This document shows, one piece after another, positions 13,871-22,264 of a stretch of 64,000 bases of DNA. The stretch lies in contig CBDBIB010000002.1 of the NCBI GenBank assembly GCA_965205945.1, positions 96,001 through 160,000 on the forward strand, given 5' to 3'. The stretch comes from Bdellovibrionales bacterium. GTDB taxonomy: Bacteria > Bdellovibrionota > Bdellovibrionia > Bdellovibrionales > UBA1609. The translations under genes were made by a program, and so were the position numbers. Within the stretch, counting starts at the first letter, position 1; every line of letters begins with the position of its first letter. The notes under the pieces were generated by a model that had not been told where the DNA came from, searched no databases, and was given only the letters and a program-made list of their open reading frames with translations.

Positions 13871-16800
13871 TTAATAATCAGGGCTACAACGTGTAAAATT
13901 AGGTTTTTCAGCAAGAGTCCAAGAAGTTAAAGTTTGGTATGAAAAACTTCCACACTCGACAACGTTAGAAACATTCCATGAACTGATGTCTTGATCAAAA
14001 GAATCTGCATTAGAAAACATAGACCTCATATCAGTAACCTTAGAAGTGTCCCAGTTAGAGGTGTCAGGGTTAGCTAAATCTGCACTTAAAAACATAGACC
14101 TCATATCAGTAACCTTAGAAGTGTCCCAGTTAGAGGTGTCAGGGTTAGCTAAAGCTGCACTATTAAACATAGAGCCCATATTAGTAACCTTAGAAGTGTC
14201 CCAGTTAGAGGTGTCAGGGTTAGCTAAAGCTGCACTATTAAACATAGAGCCCATATTAGTAACCTTAGAAGTGTCCCAGTTAGAGGTGTCAGGGTTAGCT
14301 AAATCTGCACTAAAAAACATCCGGCTCATACTAGTAACCTTAGAAGTGTCCCAGTTAGAGGTGTCAGGGTTAGCTAAATCTGCACTAAAAAACATCCGGC
14401 TCATATTAGTAACATGTCTAGTTGAGCCACCATTAACAAGAGTTAAGTTATCTGCTTTATAAAACATATGACTAAAACTTTCCCACCCTGTGTCTCCTAA
14501 TTCTGTAACCTCAATTATTTGCTCGCTATCACGAAAGTTAAGATATGGGCAGCGCCCAGTGATTTTAACTATATAAGTCCCTGAAGATGAATAAGTATGA
14601 TTTTTATCTAAATCACTTGATGAAGTAACAACTCCCGAGGTTCCATCCCCCCAATGAACCATAAAGTTATATGTATAAGAAGAACTTAAACTAAGATTTA
14701 AATTTAAATCACTACCATAAATACTAAATTTAGCTGTAAAAGGGGTTCCTAAATTTTGTATTTCAGTGCTTAAACTAACTACATCAGACAGGTTTCCGGC
14801 TGCATCTTGTGCAACACCAGAGGCGATTGTAATTTGAATATTTCCGGTTTCATCACTGCAGTCTGAAATCCTAATACTTGGATTAATAGTTGTTCCATTT
14901 GTTACTAAAACTGTGCAACCTGTAGTAGCTCCAGTAAGGCTGACATTGCTCTTTTCTAGGTTTATACTACTAAAGTCTTGGCTTACAGTTATGGGAAAGT
15001 CTATAGAATTTGAACTGCTTATTATATGGCTTCCAATACTGACAATAGGGGGTTTAGTATCTTTTATTAGATTTAAAACACCTGAAGTTTTAGAATTTCC
15101 AGCAATGTTTGTGATACTAGCAGTTAGTGAAAGTGGACCATCACTTAGGCTTGAAAAATCAATATCACCACTAAAGCTTTTATTAGAACAAGTAATAAAG
15201 CTTGTACCATGTGAAAATGTGATAAGCTCACCATCTTCAGAACATGTTCCTAAAACCCTAAAACCCCCCTCATTAATAGAATTAATGTAAGATCCACTTA
15301 AAGAGTTTGTAATAGAAATTGTTGGATCATTGTTACTTAAAAAAGTTTTCCACACTACCCCATCGCAAAACTCCAGTTTTTTTCCTAAAGAATTATACCT
15401 TAAAGTACCCTCAGTTAAACTGTCACAAGGGGTTGTAACTGTTCCAACTTTTTTTAAAAATGTAACAGTAGATGTACTAATAGATCCTGGAGTAGAAATG
15501 CTTCCAGAGACAGAAACATCACCATTATTGTTAATAGTGATTCCTTCATCATCGCCGTCTCCACTTAAATAATTTTGGTTAAGATTTATATTTAATCGAG
15601 CCCTGCCATCTCCCATATTATCAGCACTGCTTGGTAAGTTTATAAGCCGACTTCCATCAACAGCAGGCAGTCTTAAAGAGCTATCAAGCTTAATAAGCTG
15701 ATTGCTCCCTGTGCCAACATCTAATCTAGCTGTGCTAATGGTTCCTGAAGTGATCTTTTCTCCATTTAAATCTGGTATATCAGATTTTAATAAACTTAAA
15801 CCCTCAACCACTCTTCCTTTAACATCAACTCTAACTTTTGGGTACGTCCCTTGGGTTACACCCGTTGGTATAAGACTAGGGTTCGGGTAGGTTCCTGTAA
15901 GATCCCCTTGAGCCTGGCTTCCTAAAAGACTTGTGTCTGTCACACATGACCATAAATAAATAGGACCTTCACTCATTTGAAGTTTTTCATTGCTTTCACA
16001 ATTAGGCACTCCACCAGCATCCATTGCGTTGCCTGCATTTTTTCCTAAAGAAGCTTTTAAATAACCGTTTAAAAAGTTTGAATGTGTTATTTTTTTAAGA
16101 CCACTTTGAGAAACATCATACATTAAAACACTGTCTAAAGAATCAGCCGTAGTTTTTTCTGTAGTTTTGTTAATGTCTACACTTAAACTTCTATTAGTTG
16201 ATAAATCTCCACCTCCACTTAATCCACTGTTTAAAGCCGTTCTAATAGTTCTAGTTATTGGAGCTTTTCTAGATTCAAGTTCATTAAGTGCACCTTCTAC
16301 ATCTGTAGCCTGAATGTTTCCAAATGGAGTGTAGGTCACCGTGTTTGCCGCCAGACTTGCTAAACTCCAACCTTCAGACACATCCTTACAATTTGCTCCT
16401 CTTTCATCACAAATTTGTGTTATTCTTGCTGTTCCAGCAACGTCTAATAAAGCCTCAGGACTAGCCTTACCAACTCCAACCCTTCCATTAGCATCAATAA
16501 TAATTCCCTCATTATCACCGTCTCCACTTAAATAATTTTGGTTAAGATTTATATTTAATCGAGCTATACCATCTCCCATATTATCAGCACTGCTTGGTAA
16601 GTTTATAAGCTGACTTCCATCAACAGCAGGCAGTCTTAAAGAGCTATCAAGCTTAACAAGCTGATTGCTCCCTGTGCCAACATCTAATCTAGCTGTGCTA
16701 ATGGTTCCTGAAGTGATCTTTTCTCCATTTAAATCTGGTATATCAGATTTTAATAAACTTAAACCCTCAACCACTCTTCCTTTAACATCAACTCTAACTT

Positions 16801-19800
16801 TTGGGTACGTCCCTGGGGTTACACCCGTTGGTATAAGACTAGGGTTCGGGTAGGTTCCTGTAAGATCCCCTTGAGCCTGGCTTCCTAAAAGACTTGTGTC
16901 TTGATCAACTTCACATGACCAGGAATAAATAGGGCCGTTACTCATTTGAAGTTTTTCATTAGTTTCACAACTAGGCACTCCACCAGCATCCATTGCGTTG
17001 CCTGCATTTTTTCCTAAAGAAGCTTTTAAATAACCGTTTAAAAAGTTTGAATGTGTTATTTTTTTAAGACCACTTTGAGAAACATCATACATTAAAACAC
17101 TGTCTAAAGAATCAGCCGTAGTTTTTTCTGTAGTTTTGTTAATGTCTACACTTAAACTTCTATTAGTTGATAAATCTCCACCTCCACTTAATCCACTGTT
17201 TAAAGCCGTTGTAATAGTTCTAGTTATTGGAGCTTTTCTAGATTCAAGTTCATTAAGTGCACCTTCTACATCTGTAGCCTGAATGTTTCCAAATGGAGTG
17301 TAGGTCACCGTGTTTGCCGCCAGACTTGCTAAACTCCAACCTTCAGACACATCCTTACAATTTGCTCCTCTTTCATCACAAATTTGTGTTATTCTTGCTG
17401 TTCCAGCAACGTCTAATAAAGCCTCAGGACTAGCCTTACCAACTCCAACCCTTCCATTAGCATCAATAATAATTCCCTCATTATCACCGTCTCCACTTAA
17501 ATAATTTTGGTTAAGATTTATATTTAATCGAGCTATACCATCTCCCATATTATCAGCACTGCTTGGTAAGTTTATAAGCTGACTTCCATCAACAGCAGGC
17601 AGTCTTAAAGAGCTATCAAGCTTAACAAGCTGATTGCTCCCTGTGCCAACATCTAATCTAGCTGTGCTAATGGTTCCTGAAGTGATCTTTTCTCCATTTA
17701 AATCTGGTATATCAGATTTTAATAAACTTAAACCCTCAACCACTCTTCCTTTAACATCAACTCTAACTTTTGGGTACGTCCCTGGGGTTACACCCGTTGG
17801 TATAAGACTAGGGTTCGGGTAGGTTCCTGTAAGATCCCCTTGAGCCTGGCTTCCTAAAAGACTTGTGTTTTGATCAACTTCACATGACCAGGAATAAATA
17901 GGGCCATTACTCATTTGAAGTTTTTCATTGCTTTCACAACTAGGCACTCCACCAGCATCCATTGCGTTGCCTCGACTTTTTCCTAAAGAGGCTTTTAAAT
18001 AACCGTTTAAAAAGTTTGAATGTGTTATTTTTTTAAGACCACTTTGAGAAACATCATACATTAAAACACTGTCTAAAGAATCAGCCGTAGTTTTTTCTGT
18101 AGTTTTGTTAATGTCTACACTTAAACTTCTATCAGTTGATAAATCTCCGCCTCCACTTAATCCACTGTTTAAAGCCGTTCTAATAGTTCTAGTTATTGGA
18201 GCTTTTCTAGATTCAAGTTCATTAAGTGCACCTTCTACATCTGTAGCCTGAATGTTTCCAAATGGAGTGTAGGTCACCGTGTTTGCCGCCAGACTTGCTA
18301 AACTCCAACCTTCAGACACATCCTTACAATTTGCTCCTCTTTCATCACAAATTTGTGTTATTCTTGCTGTTCCAGCAACGTCTAATAAAGCCTCAGGACT
18401 AGCCTTACCAACTCCAACCCTTCCACTAGCATCAATAATAATTCCCTCATTATCACCGTCTCCACTTAAATAATTTTGGTTAAGATTTATATTTAATCGA
18501 GCTACGCTATCTCCCATATTATCAGCACTACTTGGTAAGTTTATAAGCCGACTTCCATCAACAGCAGGCAGTCTTAAAGAGCTATCAAGCTTAATAAGCT
18601 GATTGCTCCCTGTGCCAACATCTAATCTAGCTGTGCTAATGGTTCCTGAAGTGATCTTTTCTCCATTTAAATCTGGTATATCAGATTTTAATAAACTTAA
18701 ACCCTCAACCACTCTTCCTTTAACATCAACTCTAACTTTTGGGTACGCCCCTTGGGTTACACCCGTTGGTATAAGACTAGGGTTTGGGTAGGTTCCTGTA
18801 AGATCCCCTTGAGCCTGGCTTCCTAAAAGACTTGTGTCTGTGTCTGTATCAATATCAGCCACGCAAGAATAGCTTATTATAGCACCAGGGTTTCGTTGAA
18901 TCTTTTCCCCACTAGTACACACAGGAAGAGTGTCCACTTGCATGAGCTGTCCTAAACCACTTCCTATATCTGCTTCTAAACCCCTTGGCGTAATTTTTAA
19001 ACCACTTCCTACTTTTACTTTTAATTTATTTATATTAAACTCTAAACCCCCAGAAGAATCTAAATCTAAATCTATGTTTCCACTGTTGTTGTATAAACCC
19101 CTACCAAGGTTGATGCTTATTGTTGGGTTGCTACCACCTGAAGAGGTTAAAGGAGCATTGACTAAAACACTTGATGCACTACTTAAGGTGCTTAAAACTT
19201 CTAAGCTAACACCATTCCAATACTTAAGCGCTCCAGAGTCACTATTGTACCAAGTAGCCCCAGCATTGCTCATGTTCATAGATCCTAAAAGACTAACTTC
19301 TTCTAAATTCGTATAAGAACCTAAGGTCATGGTACTTCCTGGGTTTTGCATAATATGACTTGTGTTTAGAATCTGATTATTATTAAAGTTAAGGTCACCT
19401 AATAAAACCCCTCCTGTAAGAGGAAGTTTTGTATTGTCAGTTCCTGTGGGAACCACTGAGCTTGGTAGAATTCCACTTGTGATTTTATTTGCATGAATAC
19501 CGCTTGCAAGATGACTGTTTAAAACACCCCCTGGTGCAATTAAAATTGTGCCACTGTTTGTAATGGTTCCACCACTTAAGCCGCTTCCTGCTGTAATACT
19601 GGTTACAGTTCCACTACCTTTACCAACAACAGTGGCTGCTGATCCATTGTAGTACATGATTTGATTATTTGTAGAGTTATACCAAATATCTCCTGCCTGA
19701 GAATTAGGTGGTGGATGAGAGCTTGAAAAACTAGGTAAAAAGCTAGCTCCACTGATGCTTAATGGGGAGTATTGATTAGAACTGCCATTAATTAAAGCCA

Positions 19801-20407
19801 TAAGCTCCCTTTGATTGGCATCATTATCAAACACGGTCTCTAAATTGCTTTGAGTAACACCACGACTTACTTGAATAAAATCATTAACAGCTTTTCCACC
19901 AAGTTTGCCGGCATACTGAGCATAGGGCACACTGTGAATTATATGGTCATTTGTTAAAGTAAGAGGGCCGCTGCCATGATCAAAAGTTACTCTAAGCCTT
20001 CTTGTATCGTTTAAGGTTGGAGTGTATGAAGACCCAAAGGCACAACTAAGACTTTTATTGTTTAAAAAAGAATTGTCTAAAGCTTTAGATAAATTTGTTA
20101 AGCCTCCATTTCCTGTGTTTATTCCAGACCCAACGTTTAAGTTAAAAACTCCCTTTGATCCTATCATATTAAGATTAAAACTTTCTTCGTAAAGAAGACA
20201 ATGATCCATGGAGGATAAAACTTGAACAAGAAAGCTGACATTATTTTCTTCTAAAGCGTCTCCATTGGGTTTTACAATTTGGCCTTGAAAAACAAAAGAA
20301 CTTGGGGTGGCTAGAGAATGGGGAGTTAATAGTAAAATTGTGAAGAAAGTTAAAGCTTTCACACTTATTTCTATGAAATTTTTTAATAAGTCATATACTC
20401 TATACAT
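13871..20407 (-). CDS. Giant mosaic fibre adhesin: MAT-like N-terminus, phage-fibre-like repeats, Ig-like/PKD domains, DUF285 (BspA-like) tip
   Basis: Signal peptide then FQGQIVKPNG..LE...C.LYEE...G.FNL.VGSG; GTYPKVRVDVKGRV and GLSGGGDLS fibre motifs; C...EGTLRYN...LEFCDG..W; VHWGDGT (PKD); WDTSKVTxMxxMF repeats. Confidence 0.85.
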   Translation of the reverse strand: MYRVYDLLKNFIEISVKALTFFTILLLTPHSLATPSSFVFQGQIVKPNGDALEENNVSFLVQVLSSMDHCLLYEESFNLNMIGSKGVFNLNVGSGINTGNGGLTNLSKALDNSFLNNKSLSCAFGSSYTPTLNDTRRLRVTFDHGSGPLTLTNDHIIHSVPYAQYAGKLGGKAVNDFIQVSRGVTQSNLETVFDNDANQRELMALINGSSNQYSPLSISGASFLPSFSSSHPPPNSQAGDIWYNSTNNQIMYYNGSAATVVGKGSGTVTSITAGSGLSGGTITNSGTILIAPGGVLNSHLASGIHANKITSGILPSSVVPTGTDNTKLPLTGGVLLGDLNFNNNQILNTSHIMQNPGSTMTLGSYTNLEEVSLLGSMNMSNAGATWYNSDSGALKYWNGVSLEVLSTLSSASSVLVNAPLTSSGGSNPTISINLGRGLYNNSGNIDLDLDSSGGLEFNINKLKVKVGSGLKITPRGLEADIGSGLGQLMQVDTLPVCTSGEKIQRNPGAIISYSCVADIDTDTDTSLLGSQAQGDLTGTYPNPSLIPTGVTQGAYPKVRVDVKGRVVEGLSLLKSDIPDLNGEKITSGTISTARLDVGTGSNQLIKLDSSLRLPAVDGSRLINLPSSADNMGDSVARLNINLNQNYLSGDGDNEGIIIDASGRVGVGKASPEALLDVAGTARITQICDERGANCKDVSEGWSLASLAANTVTYTPFGNIQATDVEGALNELESRKAPITRTIRTALNSGLSGGGDLSTDRSLSVDINKTTEKTTADSLDSVLMYDVSQSGLKKITHSNFLNGYLKASLGKSRGNAMDAGGVPSCESNEKLQMSNGPIYSWSCEVDQNTSLLGSQAQGDLTGTYPNPSLIPTGVTPGTYPKVRVDVKGRVVEGLSLLKSDIPDLNGEKITSGTISTARLDVGTGSNQLVKLDSSLRLPAVDGSQLINLPSSADNMGDGIARLNINLNQNYLSGDGDNEGIIIDANGRVGVGKASPEALLDVAGTARITQICDERGANCKDVSEGWSLASLAANTVTYTPFGNIQATDVEGALNELESRKAPITRTITTALNSGLSGGGDLSTNRSLSVDINKTTEKTTADSLDSVLMYDVSQSGLKKITHSNFLNGYLKASLGKNAGNAMDAGGVPSCETNEKLQMSNGPIYSWSCEVDQDTSLLGSQAQGDLTGTYPNPSLIPTGVTPGTYPKVRVDVKGRVVEGLSLLKSDIPDLNGEKITSGTISTARLDVGTGSNQLVKLDSSLRLPAVDGSQLINLPSSADNMGDGIARLNINLNQNYLSGDGDNEGIIIDANGRVGVGKASPEALLDVAGTARITQICDERGANCKDVSEGWSLASLAANTVTYTPFGNIQATDVEGALNELESRKAPITRTIRTALNSGLSGGGDLSTNRSLSVDINKTTEKTTADSLDSVLMYDVSQSGLKKITHSNFLNGYLKASLGKNAGNAMDAGGVPNCESNEKLQMSEGPIYLWSCVTDTSLLGSQAQGDLTGTYPNPSLIPTGVTQGTYPKVRVDVKGRVVEGLSLLKSDIPDLNGEKITSGTISTARLDVGTGSNQLIKLDSSLRLPAVDGSRLINLPSSADNMGDGRARLNINLNQNYLSGDGDDEGITINNNGDVSVSGSISTPGSISTSTVTFLKKVGTVTTPCDSLTEGTLRYNSLGKKLEFCDGVVWKTFLSNNDPTISITNSLSGSYINSINEGGFRVLGTCSEDGELITFSHGTSFITCSNKSFSGDIDFSSLSDGPLSLTASITNIAGNSKTSGVLNLIKDTKPPIVSIGSHIISSSNSIDFPITVSQDFSSINLEKSNVSLTGATTGCTVLVTNGTTINPSIRISDCSDETGNIQITIASGVAQDAAGNLSDVVSLSTEIQNLGTPFTAKFSIYGSDLNLNLSLSSSYTYNFMVHWGDGTSGVVTSSSDLDKNHTYSSSGTYIVKITGRCPYLNFRDSEQIIEVTELGDTGWESFSHMFYKADNLTLVNGGSTRHVTNMSRMFFSADLANPDTSNWDTSKVTSMSRMFFSADLANPDTSNWDTSKVTNMGSMFNSAALANPDTSNWDTSKVTNMGSMFNSAALANPDTSNWDTSKVTDMRSMFLSADLANPDTSNWDTSKVTDMRSMFSNADSFDQDISSWNVSNVVECGSFSYQTLTSWTLAEKPNFTRCSPDY
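14005..14415. repeat. 75-bp tandem repeats encoding 25-aa DUF285 units (about 5.5 copies)
   Basis: GTAACCTTAGAAGTGTCCCAGTTAGAGGTGTCAGGGTTAGCTAAA recurs every 75 bp. Confidence 0.93.
15554..18840. repeat. Near-identical 963-969-bp tandem repeats (about 3.4 copies, 321-323 aa)
   Basis: Identical antisense ORFs at 16341/17310/18279 and near-identical ones at 15702/16665/17634/18603 give the period directly. Confidence 0.96.
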
Positions 20408-20414
20408 ATTGTAT

Positions 20415-20441
20415 ATTTCGGATGAAAAGCTTAATAATTAG
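20415..20441 (-). promoter_or_regulatory. Possible sigma-28 (FliA)-type promoter of the fibre gene
   Basis: CTAA-N15-TCCGAAAT vs consensus TAAA-N15-GCCGATAA. Confidence 0.35.
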
Positions 20442-20497
20442 AGGAAATTAAATAGTTTTTTAGCTCTAATTCTACATTTTTATTTTCATTTAAAATC

Positions 20498-20540
20498 TGT
20501 GCTTTTACAAAATATGCCGATAAGGAGGATTATGTTACTA
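20498..20540 (+). repeat. Left 43-bp inverted repeat containing a dif-like XerC/D site (20513-20540)
   Basis: TATGCCGATAA-GGAGGA-TTATGTTACTA; 41/43 identical to the reverse complement of 20997-21039. Confidence 0.85.
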
Positions 20541-20996
20541 CGTCTATTTTAAAATTATATTTAAGTTTAAAAGTATTTAATTATAAAAGTTTAGACTTTA
20601 TTTTTTTAAAATTATTATTTTCAATAAAATTTTTATCATTAAAAATAAGGACTGCTTTAGAATTTACTTTAAAAATATTTAATATTTAGCGCTCTTTTTT
20701 TAAAGCTTAGATTTAAATATCTTTATTTATCATAGCTGTTATTTTAACCAACATCTAAGTTTAAAAGTTATTAAGATACAGCATATGTATTATATAAAAT
20801 TAAATAAATATTTAAAGCGATATTCTTTAAGGTTTTTTTAATATTTATTTGTATAGAGATATTATTTAAACAAGAAAATCTTGTTAATTAAACGTAACTA
20901 TTTTGCAACATTTTTATGTTACAAAGAAATTTACACTTAAGCACCATAGTTAAAATCAGCAGGTCAAATCAAAAATAATGTGGTTTTAAGCAGAAA

Positions 20997-21039
20997 TAGT
21001 AACATAATCCTCCTTATCGGCATGTTTTATAAAAGCACA
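20997..21039 (-). repeat. Right 43-bp inverted repeat containing a dif-like XerC/D site (21024-20997)
   Basis: CATGCCGATAA-GGAGGA-TTATGTTACTA on the minus strand. Confidence 0.85.
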
Positions 21040-21113
21040 CCATCCATATTAATAACTTTAAAAGTATTCCAACCAGAAATGTTAGGGGGGTTGCTAAAGC
21101 TGCATTACTCAAT
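21036..21113 (-). pseudogene. Single degenerate DUF285 repeat remnant
   Basis: Translates, with a frameshift at a G6 run, as SNAALATP/NISGWNTFKVINMDGV vs the fibre repeat NSAALANPDTSNWDTSKVTNMGSM. Confidence 0.7.
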
Positions 21114-21424
21114 TTAATATTAGAGCTTTTGCGGGCAAATGACACAGAGCGCATTAGGAGTGTGAAAATAGTAGGGCTTTTGCTTATTTACCTATTCTAG
21201 GCAGATTCAAACTAGATTTAAATCAAGGGTATATTGTTGCATCACATTCTAAACTTAGAAGAGAGGAGTTATTTAAGTTATTCCACTAATATAAGCGCCT
21301 TTATCTAAAGGATAAAGTATTTTATGAGATAAAAACTCTAACATACTGGTATCTTTTGTGGTTCTTAAATCTTTTGATTATATGCATGGTAGAAAAGCTA
21401 TTTGTTTAGTGGTTAAATTTTAAT

Positions 21425-22264
21425 ATGAAGTTATTAAAGAAGCATAAGTGTTTTAATGGTGTAACAGAGTTTTTTGAACACGATTCTATTTTTACAAAAA
21501 TCAAAATGAAATTTGCAGTGATTAGGTCTGAAAATTTAAAAGATATTAAAGGAGGTCTTATTTGGCTATCAGGGCTAACTTGTACTGAGGAGAACTTTGT
21601 AATTAAAGCCGGAGCTCAAAGAGTAGCTACTCAACTGGGTTTAGTTATAATTTGTCCAGATACTTCGCCAAGAGGTTTAAGCCTTTTAGGAGAGCATGAA
21701 TCTTGTTATTTTGGCTCTGGGGCAGGCTGTTATGTGGATTCTTTAACTCAAGATTATAAACACCATTACAATATGTATTCATATGTGAATGATGAAATCT
21801 ATGGGATTGTAAACAAAGAATATAAGCTTAATGGGAATATAAGTATCTTTGGCCATTCAATGGGTGGGCATGGTGCTTTAGTTATTGGTTTAAGAAATAC
21901 TAATAAATATAAATCCATCTCAGCTTTTGCTCCTATTGTAAATTTAACAAAAGTAAATTGGGGTAAAAAAGCTTTTAAAAAATATTTAGGATCTGATGAA
22001 AATTTATGGAATAAATATGATGCTTGTGAATTAATTAAGAGTGGTAAATTTCATAAAAATAAAATTTTAATTGATCAGGGTACGGATGATGAGTCTTTAA
22101 ATAAGAGCTTAATGATTCCTAATTTTGAAAAAGCATGTGAATCATCACCTCAAGAACTTAAAGTAAGGTATCATAAGGGGTTTGACCACTCATATTACTT
22201 TGTTTCTACGTTTATAAAAGACCATTTAAGGTTTCACCAAAGAAGTTTATTAAAACAAGTTTAA
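21425..22264 (+). CDS. fghA: S-formylglutathione hydrolase
   Basis: WLSGLTC, PDTSPRG, GHSMGGHGAL and DHSYYF motifs. Confidence 0.95.
   Translation: MKLLKKHKCFNGVTEFFEHDSIFTKIKMKFAVIRSENLKDIKGGLIWLSGLTCTEENFVIKAGAQRVATQLGLVIICPDTSPRGLSLLGEHESCYFGSGAGCYVDSLTQDYKHHYNMYSYVNDEIYGIVNKEYKLNGNISIFGHSMGGHGALVIGLRNTNKYKSISAFAPIVNLTKVNWGKKAFKKYLGSDENLWNKYDACELIKSGKFHKNKILIDQGTDDESLNKSLMIPNFEKACESSPQELKVRYHKGFDHSYYFVSTFIKDHLRFHQRSLLKQV

Follow-up and report, generated by a model that had tools for sequence, protein, structure and literature searches.

The window analysed here, a stretch of 64,000 nucleotides corresponding to C2:96001-160000 of the Bdellovibrionales source genome G000 (1,869,826 bp in 5 contigs, 32% G+C), carries a giant fibre gene preceded at 20498-21039 by an inverted-repeat element whose arms resemble dif, and which is a candidate invertible switch for that gene. 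The fibre gene (13871-20407, minus strand), the presumed target of the switch, encodes a protein of 2178 aa with a mosaic adhesive trimer (MAT) N-terminal domain, a repeated stalk and a DUF285/PARCEL tip. Its head matches NF053851 (Bdello_MAT_N) at 145.4 bits against a cut-off of 60, and its tip matches PF03382 at 172.8 bits. The element as a whole measures 542 bp at 20.5% G+C, with a gene-proximal 43-bp arm (20498-20540, plus strand) and an inverted distal copy (20997-21039, minus strand) enclosing 456 bp (20541-20996). The two arms are identical at 41 of 43 positions, the mismatches falling at arm positions 11 and 16, and a repeat search follows a weaker likeness out to 56 nt at 88%. The proximal arm starts 90 nt from the fibre ATG, and the interval from the start of the fibre gene (20407, minus strand) to the gene that follows (21425) is free of open reading frames (ORFs) of 60 aa or more. 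The near-identical arms, the AT-rich interior, the lack of an ORF of that length and the short distance to the gene had all been pointed out in an earlier, sequence-only reading of the window, and all are present as described.

Both arms carry an 11-6-11 layout, (T/C)ATGCCGATAA-GGAGGA-TTATGTTACTA, with an inner palindrome ATAA-N6-TTAT, and the 27-mer core occurs twice in the window against no occurrence in 100 dinucleotide shuffles. Specifically, the dif-like core of the proximal arm (20513-20540) consists of a XerC-type arm TATGCCGATAA at 20513-20523, the spacer GGAGGA at 20524-20529 and a XerD-type arm TTATGTTACTA at 20530-20540, with the XerD-type half pointing toward the segment. The distal arm presents the XerD-type arm at 20997-21007, the spacer at 21008-21013 and the XerC-type arm CATGCCGATAA at 21014-21024; the spacers of the two arms are identical at this locus, in agreement with the sequence-only reading. 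Between them, the AT-rich candidate invertible segment (20541-20996) exposes its X end (CGTCTATTT...) to the gene and its Y end (...GTGGTTTTAAGCAGAAA) to the distal side, and it terminates at the latter in a Y-terminal module of ~137 bp (20860-20996). No Rfam family was matched by the segment. The element is framed by a fixed 'A' flank of 90 nt (20408-20497, minus strand), which runs from the proximal arm to the ATG and is conserved at all nine fibre loci of the genome, and by a fixed 'B' flank of 74 bp on the distal side (21040-21113), which is present at six of the nine and at whose end paralogue homology stops.

The 28-mer core is found 17 times in G000 when up to 5 substitutions are allowed, as eight inverted pairs 541-599 bp apart and one solo arm, and all 17 arms lie upstream of nine paralogous giant fibre genes; a control search with the reversed pattern of the core returned no match. 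The genes occupy C1:59483-67969, C1:284081-289165, C1:517704-521474, C1:652319-end, C2:54837-61898, 13871-20407 of the window, C2:176660-183565, C3:100004-107215 and C3:582622-589833. A tblastn search with the first 200 residues recovers nine fibre copies that are 99.5-100% identical there, and the paralogues range from 1256 to 2828 aa, one of them running off a contig end. Over the last 500 residues most alignable pairs share 70-86% identity, rising to 93-100% over short stretches, and some pairs cannot be aligned. Homology among the loci spans the gene, the 90-nt A flank, the element and the 74-bp B flank and then ends, the genes beyond the B flank varying among loci and lying in either direction. 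The contigs that bear switch loci are 328-838 kb long and contain chromosomal genes. The nine fibre paralogues amount to ~58 kb in total, roughly 3% of the 1.87-Mb genome; their stalks are built of ~969-bp tandem repeats whose number varies by paralogue, their tips diverge, and one fibre gene is split between the end of C1 and the start of C3. Adjoining the distal flank of locus C1_67969, a 259-aa ORF (C1:68939-69718) resembles an IS5-type transposase, as judged by eye from its first residues.

Several of these features, namely 43-bp terminal inverted repeats, a length of ~540 bp, AT-richness, the lack of an ORF and the presence of several copies, would also be displayed by a miniature inverted-repeat transposable element (MITE) or a transposon remnant with TGT...ACA terminal inverted repeats, which the sequence-only reading had named as a caveat. 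What speaks against such an origin is that 17 of 17 arms occupy the same relative place upstream of a single gene family with flanks conserved on both sides, that the flanks form no direct repeat (...AAAATC on one side, CCATCC... on the other), and that no larger element with these ends occurs in the genome. Moreover, the congener G003, described below, keeps the dif-like core only and not the outer 16 nt, and the orientation of the segment changes within fixed flanks. A test on target-site duplications and on dispersed copies away from the fibre genes found neither and ruled this origin out; we give it almost no credence.

The resemblance of the arms to dif is most evident within the genome itself. 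When the genome was scored against both switch arms with the spacer left free, the 17 switch sites reached 21/21, and the next best match was one site at 19/21, located at C1:58572-58598 with the structure ATGCTGATAA-GGTATA-TTATGTTACAA. This site is single-copy and intergenic and lies in the zone where the GC skew of C1 turns over, the skew being positive to ~43 kb, near zero to ~63 kb and negative after, with the cumulative maximum at 62 kb. The identical 27-mer is present once in G003 as the sole 0-mismatch match there, and the skew around it declines from +0.27 to about 0 over 80 kb without a sharp turn, a profile that is consistent with a terminus and not decisive. Other genera contain single sites of the form NTNCTGATAA-G(T/G)TATA-TTATGTTACAW, with spacers such as GTTATA and GGTATA, and the dif pattern at up to 3 mismatches is found in 16 of 41 genomes, compared with 2 hits in 41 genomes for a backwards control. 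The site at C1:58572-58598 is taken to be the chromosomal dif. Compared with it, each half of the switch core has a single substitution (T to C in the XerC half, A to T in the XerD half), and three of the six spacer bases are changed (GGAGGA vs GGTATA). The arms match the Escherichia coli dif cited in the sequence-only reading at 7-8/11 and 8/11, and the presumed dif of the genome itself, being much closer, is a far stronger ground for calling the sites dif-like. One switch locus lies 9.5 kb from dif, and the others are far off on C1 or on other contigs.

Further sites of this kind were encountered in the same searches. Extra single dif-like sites are located at G000 C1:423624-423650, G003:C11:451014-451040 and G002:C94:1-27, with spacers GTTTTC, GCCTTC and TTAAAC; no partner site occurs within 1.5 kb of those at G000 C1:423624 and G003 C11:451014, and the G002 site, with perfect arms, stands at the very start of its contig and adjoins a 341-aa ORF of unknown kind. 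Such extra single sites may mark Xer-exploiting elements. Inside the window segment, an internal XerD half-site TTATGTTACAA at 20914-20924 equals the dif XerD arm exactly; it is exact in only two of nine segments, the genome contains 4 copies of the 11-mer where 5.6 would be expected, and it was not counted as a feature. Cumulative GC skew also outlines very unequal replichores, a descending one of ~0.64 Mb (C1 62-658 kb plus C3 0-44 kb) and an ascending one of ~1.18 Mb (C3 44-838 kb, C2 and C1 0-62 kb), an inequality that could be real, an effect of contig order, or the trace of large rearrangements between fibre loci.

The inner ends of the segment are distinguishable, X reading ...TTACTA followed by CGTCTATTT and Y reading ...TTACTA followed by TTTCTGCTTAAAACCAC, and their orientation was read against the A flank and the gene, in a comparison among loci and not among cells. 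The X end is gene-proximal at five loci (C1_67969, C1_521474, C1_652319, C3_589833 and the window locus, C2_116407), and the Y end is gene-proximal at four (C2_61898, C2_176660, C3_100004 and the truncated C1_289165). Seven of the eight complete copies have segments that share 94-99% identity, and the segment of C3_100004 stands at 83-86%. A 10-bp duplication is common to one X-proximal and two Y-proximal copies, and at least two inversion events have therefore taken place in G000. Arm position 11 remains with the flank in the four informative loci, and arm position 16 stays with the flank at one inverted locus and with the segment at C2_61898; the exchange in G000 can therefore be placed only between arm positions 11 and 43. 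Spacers are equal on both arms at seven of the eight complete loci, six with GGAGGA and one with GGGGGA. The truncated switch of C1_289165 (C1:289256-289432) retains the gene-proximal arm and ~134 bp of the Y end, and because its second arm is absent this copy is predicted to be locked with Y gene-proximal. Taken together, the mixed orientation among copies suggests that a housekeeping Xer recombinase flips the segment and thereby varies which fibres are made.

The congener G003 (same genus, ~2.4 Mb, 10 contigs, 98% complete) contains the same arrangement with its interior inverted between loci. Fifteen matches to the fibre head are found there, and the upstream regions of all 15 were compared: two loci, at C5 ~412.4-413.0 kb and ~530.8-531.3 kb, carry inverted GTGCTGATAA-TATGGA-TTATGTTACTA sites, and the other 13 have no such repeat upstream. 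At one of the two the detected inverted repeat is 30 nt long, that is, the core plus 3 nt, and at the other BLAST extends the repeat at 77% over 70 nt into AT-rich outer flanks. When the two loci are compared with each other, the distal flank aligns directly (188 nt including the core, 95.7%), the proximal flank likewise (409 nt, 99.8%), and the 502-bp interior is exactly inverted, base for base to the core edges. The exchange in G003 therefore occurred inside the 27-bp dif-like core. All four G003 arms contain one spacer, TATGGA, compared with GGAGGA or GGGGGA in G000, and the sharing of a spacer by partners while the spacer drifts between species is what pairs of tyrosine-recombinase sites would be expected to require. 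In G003, conservation of the arms is limited to the dif-like core and does not reach their outer 16 nt, and the flanking DNA of the two genomes shows no evident likeness by eye. Across both species, at least three separate inversion events would be needed to account for the orientations observed.

In an alignment of eight G000 and two G003 segments, the Y-terminal ~137 bp are the best-conserved part, and a BLAST search with 20860-21023 aligns G003 at 80% over 136 nt. Among 109 family genomes, with the best 7 BLAST candidates per genome scored, the Y module is found in two, G000 and G003, and of 41 genomes only G000 itself contains the G000 core at up to 3 mismatches; the remaining three genomes of the genus, in 60-100 contigs, may lack the assembled repeats. 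The exact G000 core has no match in Joint Genome Institute (JGI) metagenome contigs, and a 23-nt Y-module pattern has none in metagenome contigs and none in a genome-contig collection from which near-identical genomes were possibly left out. The sequence-only reading had also entertained an emptied cassette slot, and this idea gives way to the finding that the segment is a ~0.5-kb unit conserved between species. The transposon and empty-slot readings are both rejected, and the sequence comparisons give good support to inversion, at Xer-type sites, of a cassette conserved upstream of the fibre gene at nine loci.

No recombinase gene lies inside the window, as had been observed earlier, and the nearest Xer-like gene begins at C2:242734, ~83 kb past the window end. 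G000 contains five PF00589 matches and one resolvase (serine recombinase) match, and two of the PF00589 proteins are of Xer type. The XerD-like protein (C2:242734-243642) scores 263 bits with TIGR02225, below the equivalog cut-off of 330, and matches the solved XerD structure 1a0p at E 6e-36, while the XerC-like protein (C3:142843-143760) scores 160 bits with TIGR02224, below the cut-off of 335; the names XerC and XerD thus rest on best family and orthology and not on curated cut-offs. The XerD-like protein aligns with solved XerD and with a XerD-FtsK-gamma fusion, and an FtsK gamma domain is encoded in G000 (87.6 bits). Conserved stretches of the form R...HxxR...H...Y are visible by eye in both Xer-like proteins, the assignment of these residues being our assumption. 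No PF00589 or PF00239 match lies within 35 kb of any G000 fibre locus, and no dedicated invertase was found. G003 has only two PF00589 matches, the orthologues of the G000 XerC-like and XerD-like proteins at 86.6% and 87.8% identity, and if the inversion in G003 was made by a tyrosine recombinase, the enzyme would be XerC/XerD. The G003 xerC orthologue (G003:C5:535591-536565) is convergent with the fibre gene of one switch locus and lies ~0.9 kb beyond it; in G000, xerC is ~35 kb from the nearest fibre locus.

Collectively, these observations are probably best explained by a multi-locus invertible switch driven by XerCD at dif-mimic sites upstream of the fibre genes. According to this model, the two arms would be mimics of the chromosomal dif, predicted binding and cleavage sites for the housekeeping XerC/XerD pair, placed in inverted orientation with identical 6-bp spacers, and recombination between them would flip the ~0.5-kb non-coding segment 90 nt upstream of the fibre gene. 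The cassette stands before all nine MAT paralogues, eight copies complete and one truncated and presumably locked, and these would act as independently invertible elements served by one housekeeping enzyme pair. The private spacer GGAGGA, compared with GGTATA in dif, would keep the switch sites from productive recombination with dif, and the purpose of the arrangement would be phase variation of displayed fibre variants with differing tips. Thus XerCD would be the catalyst, inversion would be ongoing, and orientation would set expression. The model is strengthened because the arms match dif at 19/21, both orientations occur, the G003 exchange falls in the core and G003 has only XerC/XerD orthologues. 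In a broader version, XerCD would act as a genome-wide invertase on eight flippable cassettes that, together with one locked copy, precede a recently expanded fibre family; a clonal predator population could then show up to 2^8 fibre-tip combinations and hedge its bets over prey range. This version is plausible and is put forward more tentatively. The sequence-only proposal that host XerCD inverts a regulatory segment has fared unevenly: the inversion by XerCD gains strong support from comparisons, namely the dif mimicry, the two orientations, the G003 core exchange and the two recombinases, and its regulatory part is held back by the lack of a convincing promoter in the segment.

Several observations weigh against the XerCD switch, and part of them would fit fossil or accidental inversions, in which relic dif-like pairs, left for instance by an old Xer-exploiting element that had inserted in front of an ancestral fibre gene, were copied with that gene and turned by rare RecA or sporadic Xer events, with no current switching or regulatory role. 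The G000 repeats, at 43-56 bp, are long enough for rare RecA-dependent inversion, the position-16 polymorphism of C2_61898 moves with the segment, which strict spacer exchange would not predict and which fits exchange outside the spacer, and the spacers of C1_521474 are unequal. All G000 copies and their flanks derive from duplication of one unit, so copy number is silent on function, and the pair accompanies only two of the 15 G003 fibre loci. In addition, the G000 XerC arm has a C where the dif-like single sites of all listed relatives have a T, and from that C the binding of XerC to the G000 sites may be predicted to be weak. Other enzymes are also encoded: G000 has three further integrase-like genes and one serine recombinase, all lying more than 35 kb from every fibre locus, and G003 has one large serine recombinase, on another contig. 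Both genomes look metagenome-derived, and what the assembly gives for each locus is a consensus orientation. Three public metagenome runs from one study hold the window locus as k=31 contigs that end inside the repeats (e.g. 20514-21010), with no joints reported over 19900-21900, and population heterogeneity, whose invisibility there would suit a fossil, cannot appear in contigs of this kind; they are uninformative either way as to two orientations at one locus within a population.

The G003 loci and the conservation of the sites speak against a fossil origin. The near-perfect repeat in G003 is a core of ~27-30 bp with the exchange inside it, which is a poor substrate for RecA, and arms keep a common spacer within a species though the spacer differs between species. 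The arms also remain within 1 base of real dif while the flanking DNA shows no evident cross-species likeness, the Y module is conserved between species, and three or more separate inversions have to be accommodated in two species. Fossil or accidental inversion is, on this balance, unlikely, though it keeps some weight.

The reservations about the XerCD switch extend to expression. Promoter prediction found nothing convincing in the segment, with 12 sigma-70-like matches compared with 7.3 +/- 2.8 in shuffles, and 0 terminators were found in the segment; that no promoter has been assigned to it also suits the fossil explanation. The attack-phase FliA consensus of Bdellovibrio bacteriovorus is given as TTAAG-N16-CCGATA (PMC3627812), and no FliA-type match of at least 9/11 occurs in 20300-21200. 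Within the Y module, no sigma-70, sigma-54 or FliA-type site conserved in both species was seen by eye or by scan. The A flank does hold a degenerate FliA-type match, TCTAA (20438-20442)-N16-CCGAAA (20416-20421), which ends 8 nt before the ATG, and no Shine-Dalgarno sequence is visible in the A flank of the switch loci. This promoter-like element is homologous to the TTTAG-N16-CCGATA region of the non-switch G003 fibre genes, which combine that good match with AGGA ~8 nt before the ATG; at the G003 switch loci its counterpart sits directly before the ATG, at a distance of 9 nt. By this comparison the switch loci have lost the usual leader. Such a loss fits dependence on upstream input, and it also allows a fixed leaderless promoter outside the segment. 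The model is weakest at this point: with a FliA-like element next to the ATG and not within the segment, transcription may proceed independently of the segment.

If orientation does set expression, our guess is that the working element sits in the Y-terminal ~137 bp and that the Y-proximal orientation is the expressing state, because the Y end is best conserved between species and is the part that C1_289165 retains next to its gene. Positioned gene-proximally, this module would most likely function as a promoter or a regulator-binding module. Comparison of the Y module with the upstream regions of seven of the 13 non-switch G003 fibre loci, seven being comparable because the start codon was located in only nine of the 15 loci, gave no significant likeness (best E 0.07). 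The sequence-only suggestion that GCCGATAA in the arm doubles as a sigma-28 -10 box was dismissed as coincidence, since no TTAAG/TAAA -35 box stands at the right distance and the G003 sites read GCTGATAA. At both inner edges (20524-20546 and 20991-21013), the spacer GGAGGA followed by TTATG resembles a Shine-Dalgarno sequence and start codon reading inward from each arm; the ORFs from these starts measure 6 aa at the X end and 13 aa at the Y end (MLLFLLKTTLFLI), and the Y-end ORF has 18 aa in G003, with changes that are partly synonymous. The motif is probably a by-product of the site sequence, because normal starts need more than its 2-nt spacing. Among the small ORFs of the segment more generally (12-24 aa, some starting at an ATG in the XerD arm), none is convincing.

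The XerCD sites might also act between loci, swapping upstream cassettes or whole chromosome arms among fibre genes, much as dif modules are exchanged on Acinetobacter plasmids, with local inversion as a by-product. The arms are common to all 17 sites and the spacer GGAGGA to 13 of them, the replichores deduced from GC skew are very unequal, and plasmid XerC/D sites are reported to mediate fusions as well as inversions (PMC9947245). At two loci the distal flank is an inverted piece of the gene-side A flank in place of B, accompanied by A-type outer-arm variants: C1:651555-651686 at C1_652319 (132 bp, including 42 bp of fibre coding sequence) and C3:590466-590554 at C3_589833 (89 bp). These inverted pieces could be footprints of inter-locus exchange or of an older, longer inverted duplication. 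Six of the nine loci, on the other side, keep the same A/B flank pair, no product with B flanks on both sides of a segment was found among the loci, the skew within contigs is without large anomalies except at the fibre genes themselves, and the segment has no cargo gene. Exchange between loci as the principal role of the sites is accordingly improbable, and inversion within each locus by XerCD is retained as the preferred explanation.

The closest parallel to a XerCD switch is found in Acinetobacter baumannii plasmids, in which oppositely oriented pXerC/D (pdif) sites with identical spacers invert DNA reversibly (PMC9947245). As in that system (PMC9947245), the present sites are 28-bp dif-like sequences away from dif, with identical 6-bp spacers and no dedicated recombinase. 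The pdif sites described there (PMC9947245) are on plasmids, bracket gene-carrying modules (resistance and others) and restructure the plasmids, whereas the G000 sites are chromosomal, stand at nine fibre loci and enclose ~0.5 kb of non-coding DNA 90 nt from the start codon, the layout of an expression switch. Inversion of pdif modules also differs in its evidence from that in G000, which is deduced and not shown by polymerase chain reaction.

Mollicutes provide a second parallel. At the mba locus of Ureaplasma parvum, XerC binds the switch repeats and CodV binds a putative dif (PMC3599477), and Vpma phase variation in Mycoplasma agalactiae likewise involves XerC (reviewed in PMC11868660). There, as proposed here, a Xer-group tyrosine recombinase inverts DNA at short inverted repeats and varies surface proteins (PMC3599477, PMC11868660). 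The G000 and G003 sites copy real dif arms, and G003 is without a tyrosine recombinase beyond XerC/XerD. The Mollicute switch sites are not known to be dif mimics.

Dedicated invertases usually carry out phase variation by DNA inversion, and fimS with FimB/FimE and the Mpi system of Bacteroides fragilis are classical invertible promoter switches. The fibre cassettes are like such invertons in that short inverted repeats flank a few hundred non-coding base pairs upstream of a surface-protein gene. Many loci depend on a single enzyme in B. fragilis and Clostridioides difficile, as proposed for G000; the C. difficile switches include cwpV and other RecV sites (PMC2784873). Unlike invertons, which have dedicated invertases and their own repeats, G000 is without a dedicated invertase in the searches made, it has repeats that mimic dif, and neither a promoter nor a terminator has so far been placed in the segment. 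Host XerCD is exploited via dif-like sites by integrative elements such as the CTX phage and the gonococcal genetic island. The fibre cassettes resemble these elements in using dif-like sites beyond dimer resolution, and differ from them in that the elements integrate and excise through direct repeats at dif, whereas the G000 sites are inverted and enclose no genes.

The target genes belong to a known class of predator adhesins. The MAT fibres of Bdellovibrio bacteriovorus HD100 form a multi-gene prey-recognition repertoire (Caulton et al. 2024, PMC10769870), and the G000 fibres share with them the family N-terminal domain NF053851 and a variable tip. In that paper (PMC10769870), phase variation is not mentioned, the words inversion and recombination refer only to microscopes and cloning, and no set of nine near-identical heads equipped with an invertible cassette appears. 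More generally, no paper on a Xer/dif-like invertible switch of Bdellovibrio adhesins was found in a literature search to which subscription journals and supplementary files were external. Phase variation as bet-hedging is known in pathogens, and we know of no description of it in predatory bacteria.

If the XerCD switch is real, a chromosomal multi-locus switch run by the essential XerCD at dif mimics would show that such systems can be built in a new manner. How the cell avoids interference with chromosome segregation would then become a question, to which the private spacer suggests one answer, and the switch would supply a natural case of inversion between inverted chromosomal dif-like sites, useful on FtsK dependence. 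The MAT family was defined as recently as 2024, and the switch would also bear on how Bdellovibrio-like predators select and vary the fibres with which they bind prey. The nine heads, which differ in their tips and each follow a candidate flip-switch, would offer a directly testable model of stochastic prey-range variation.

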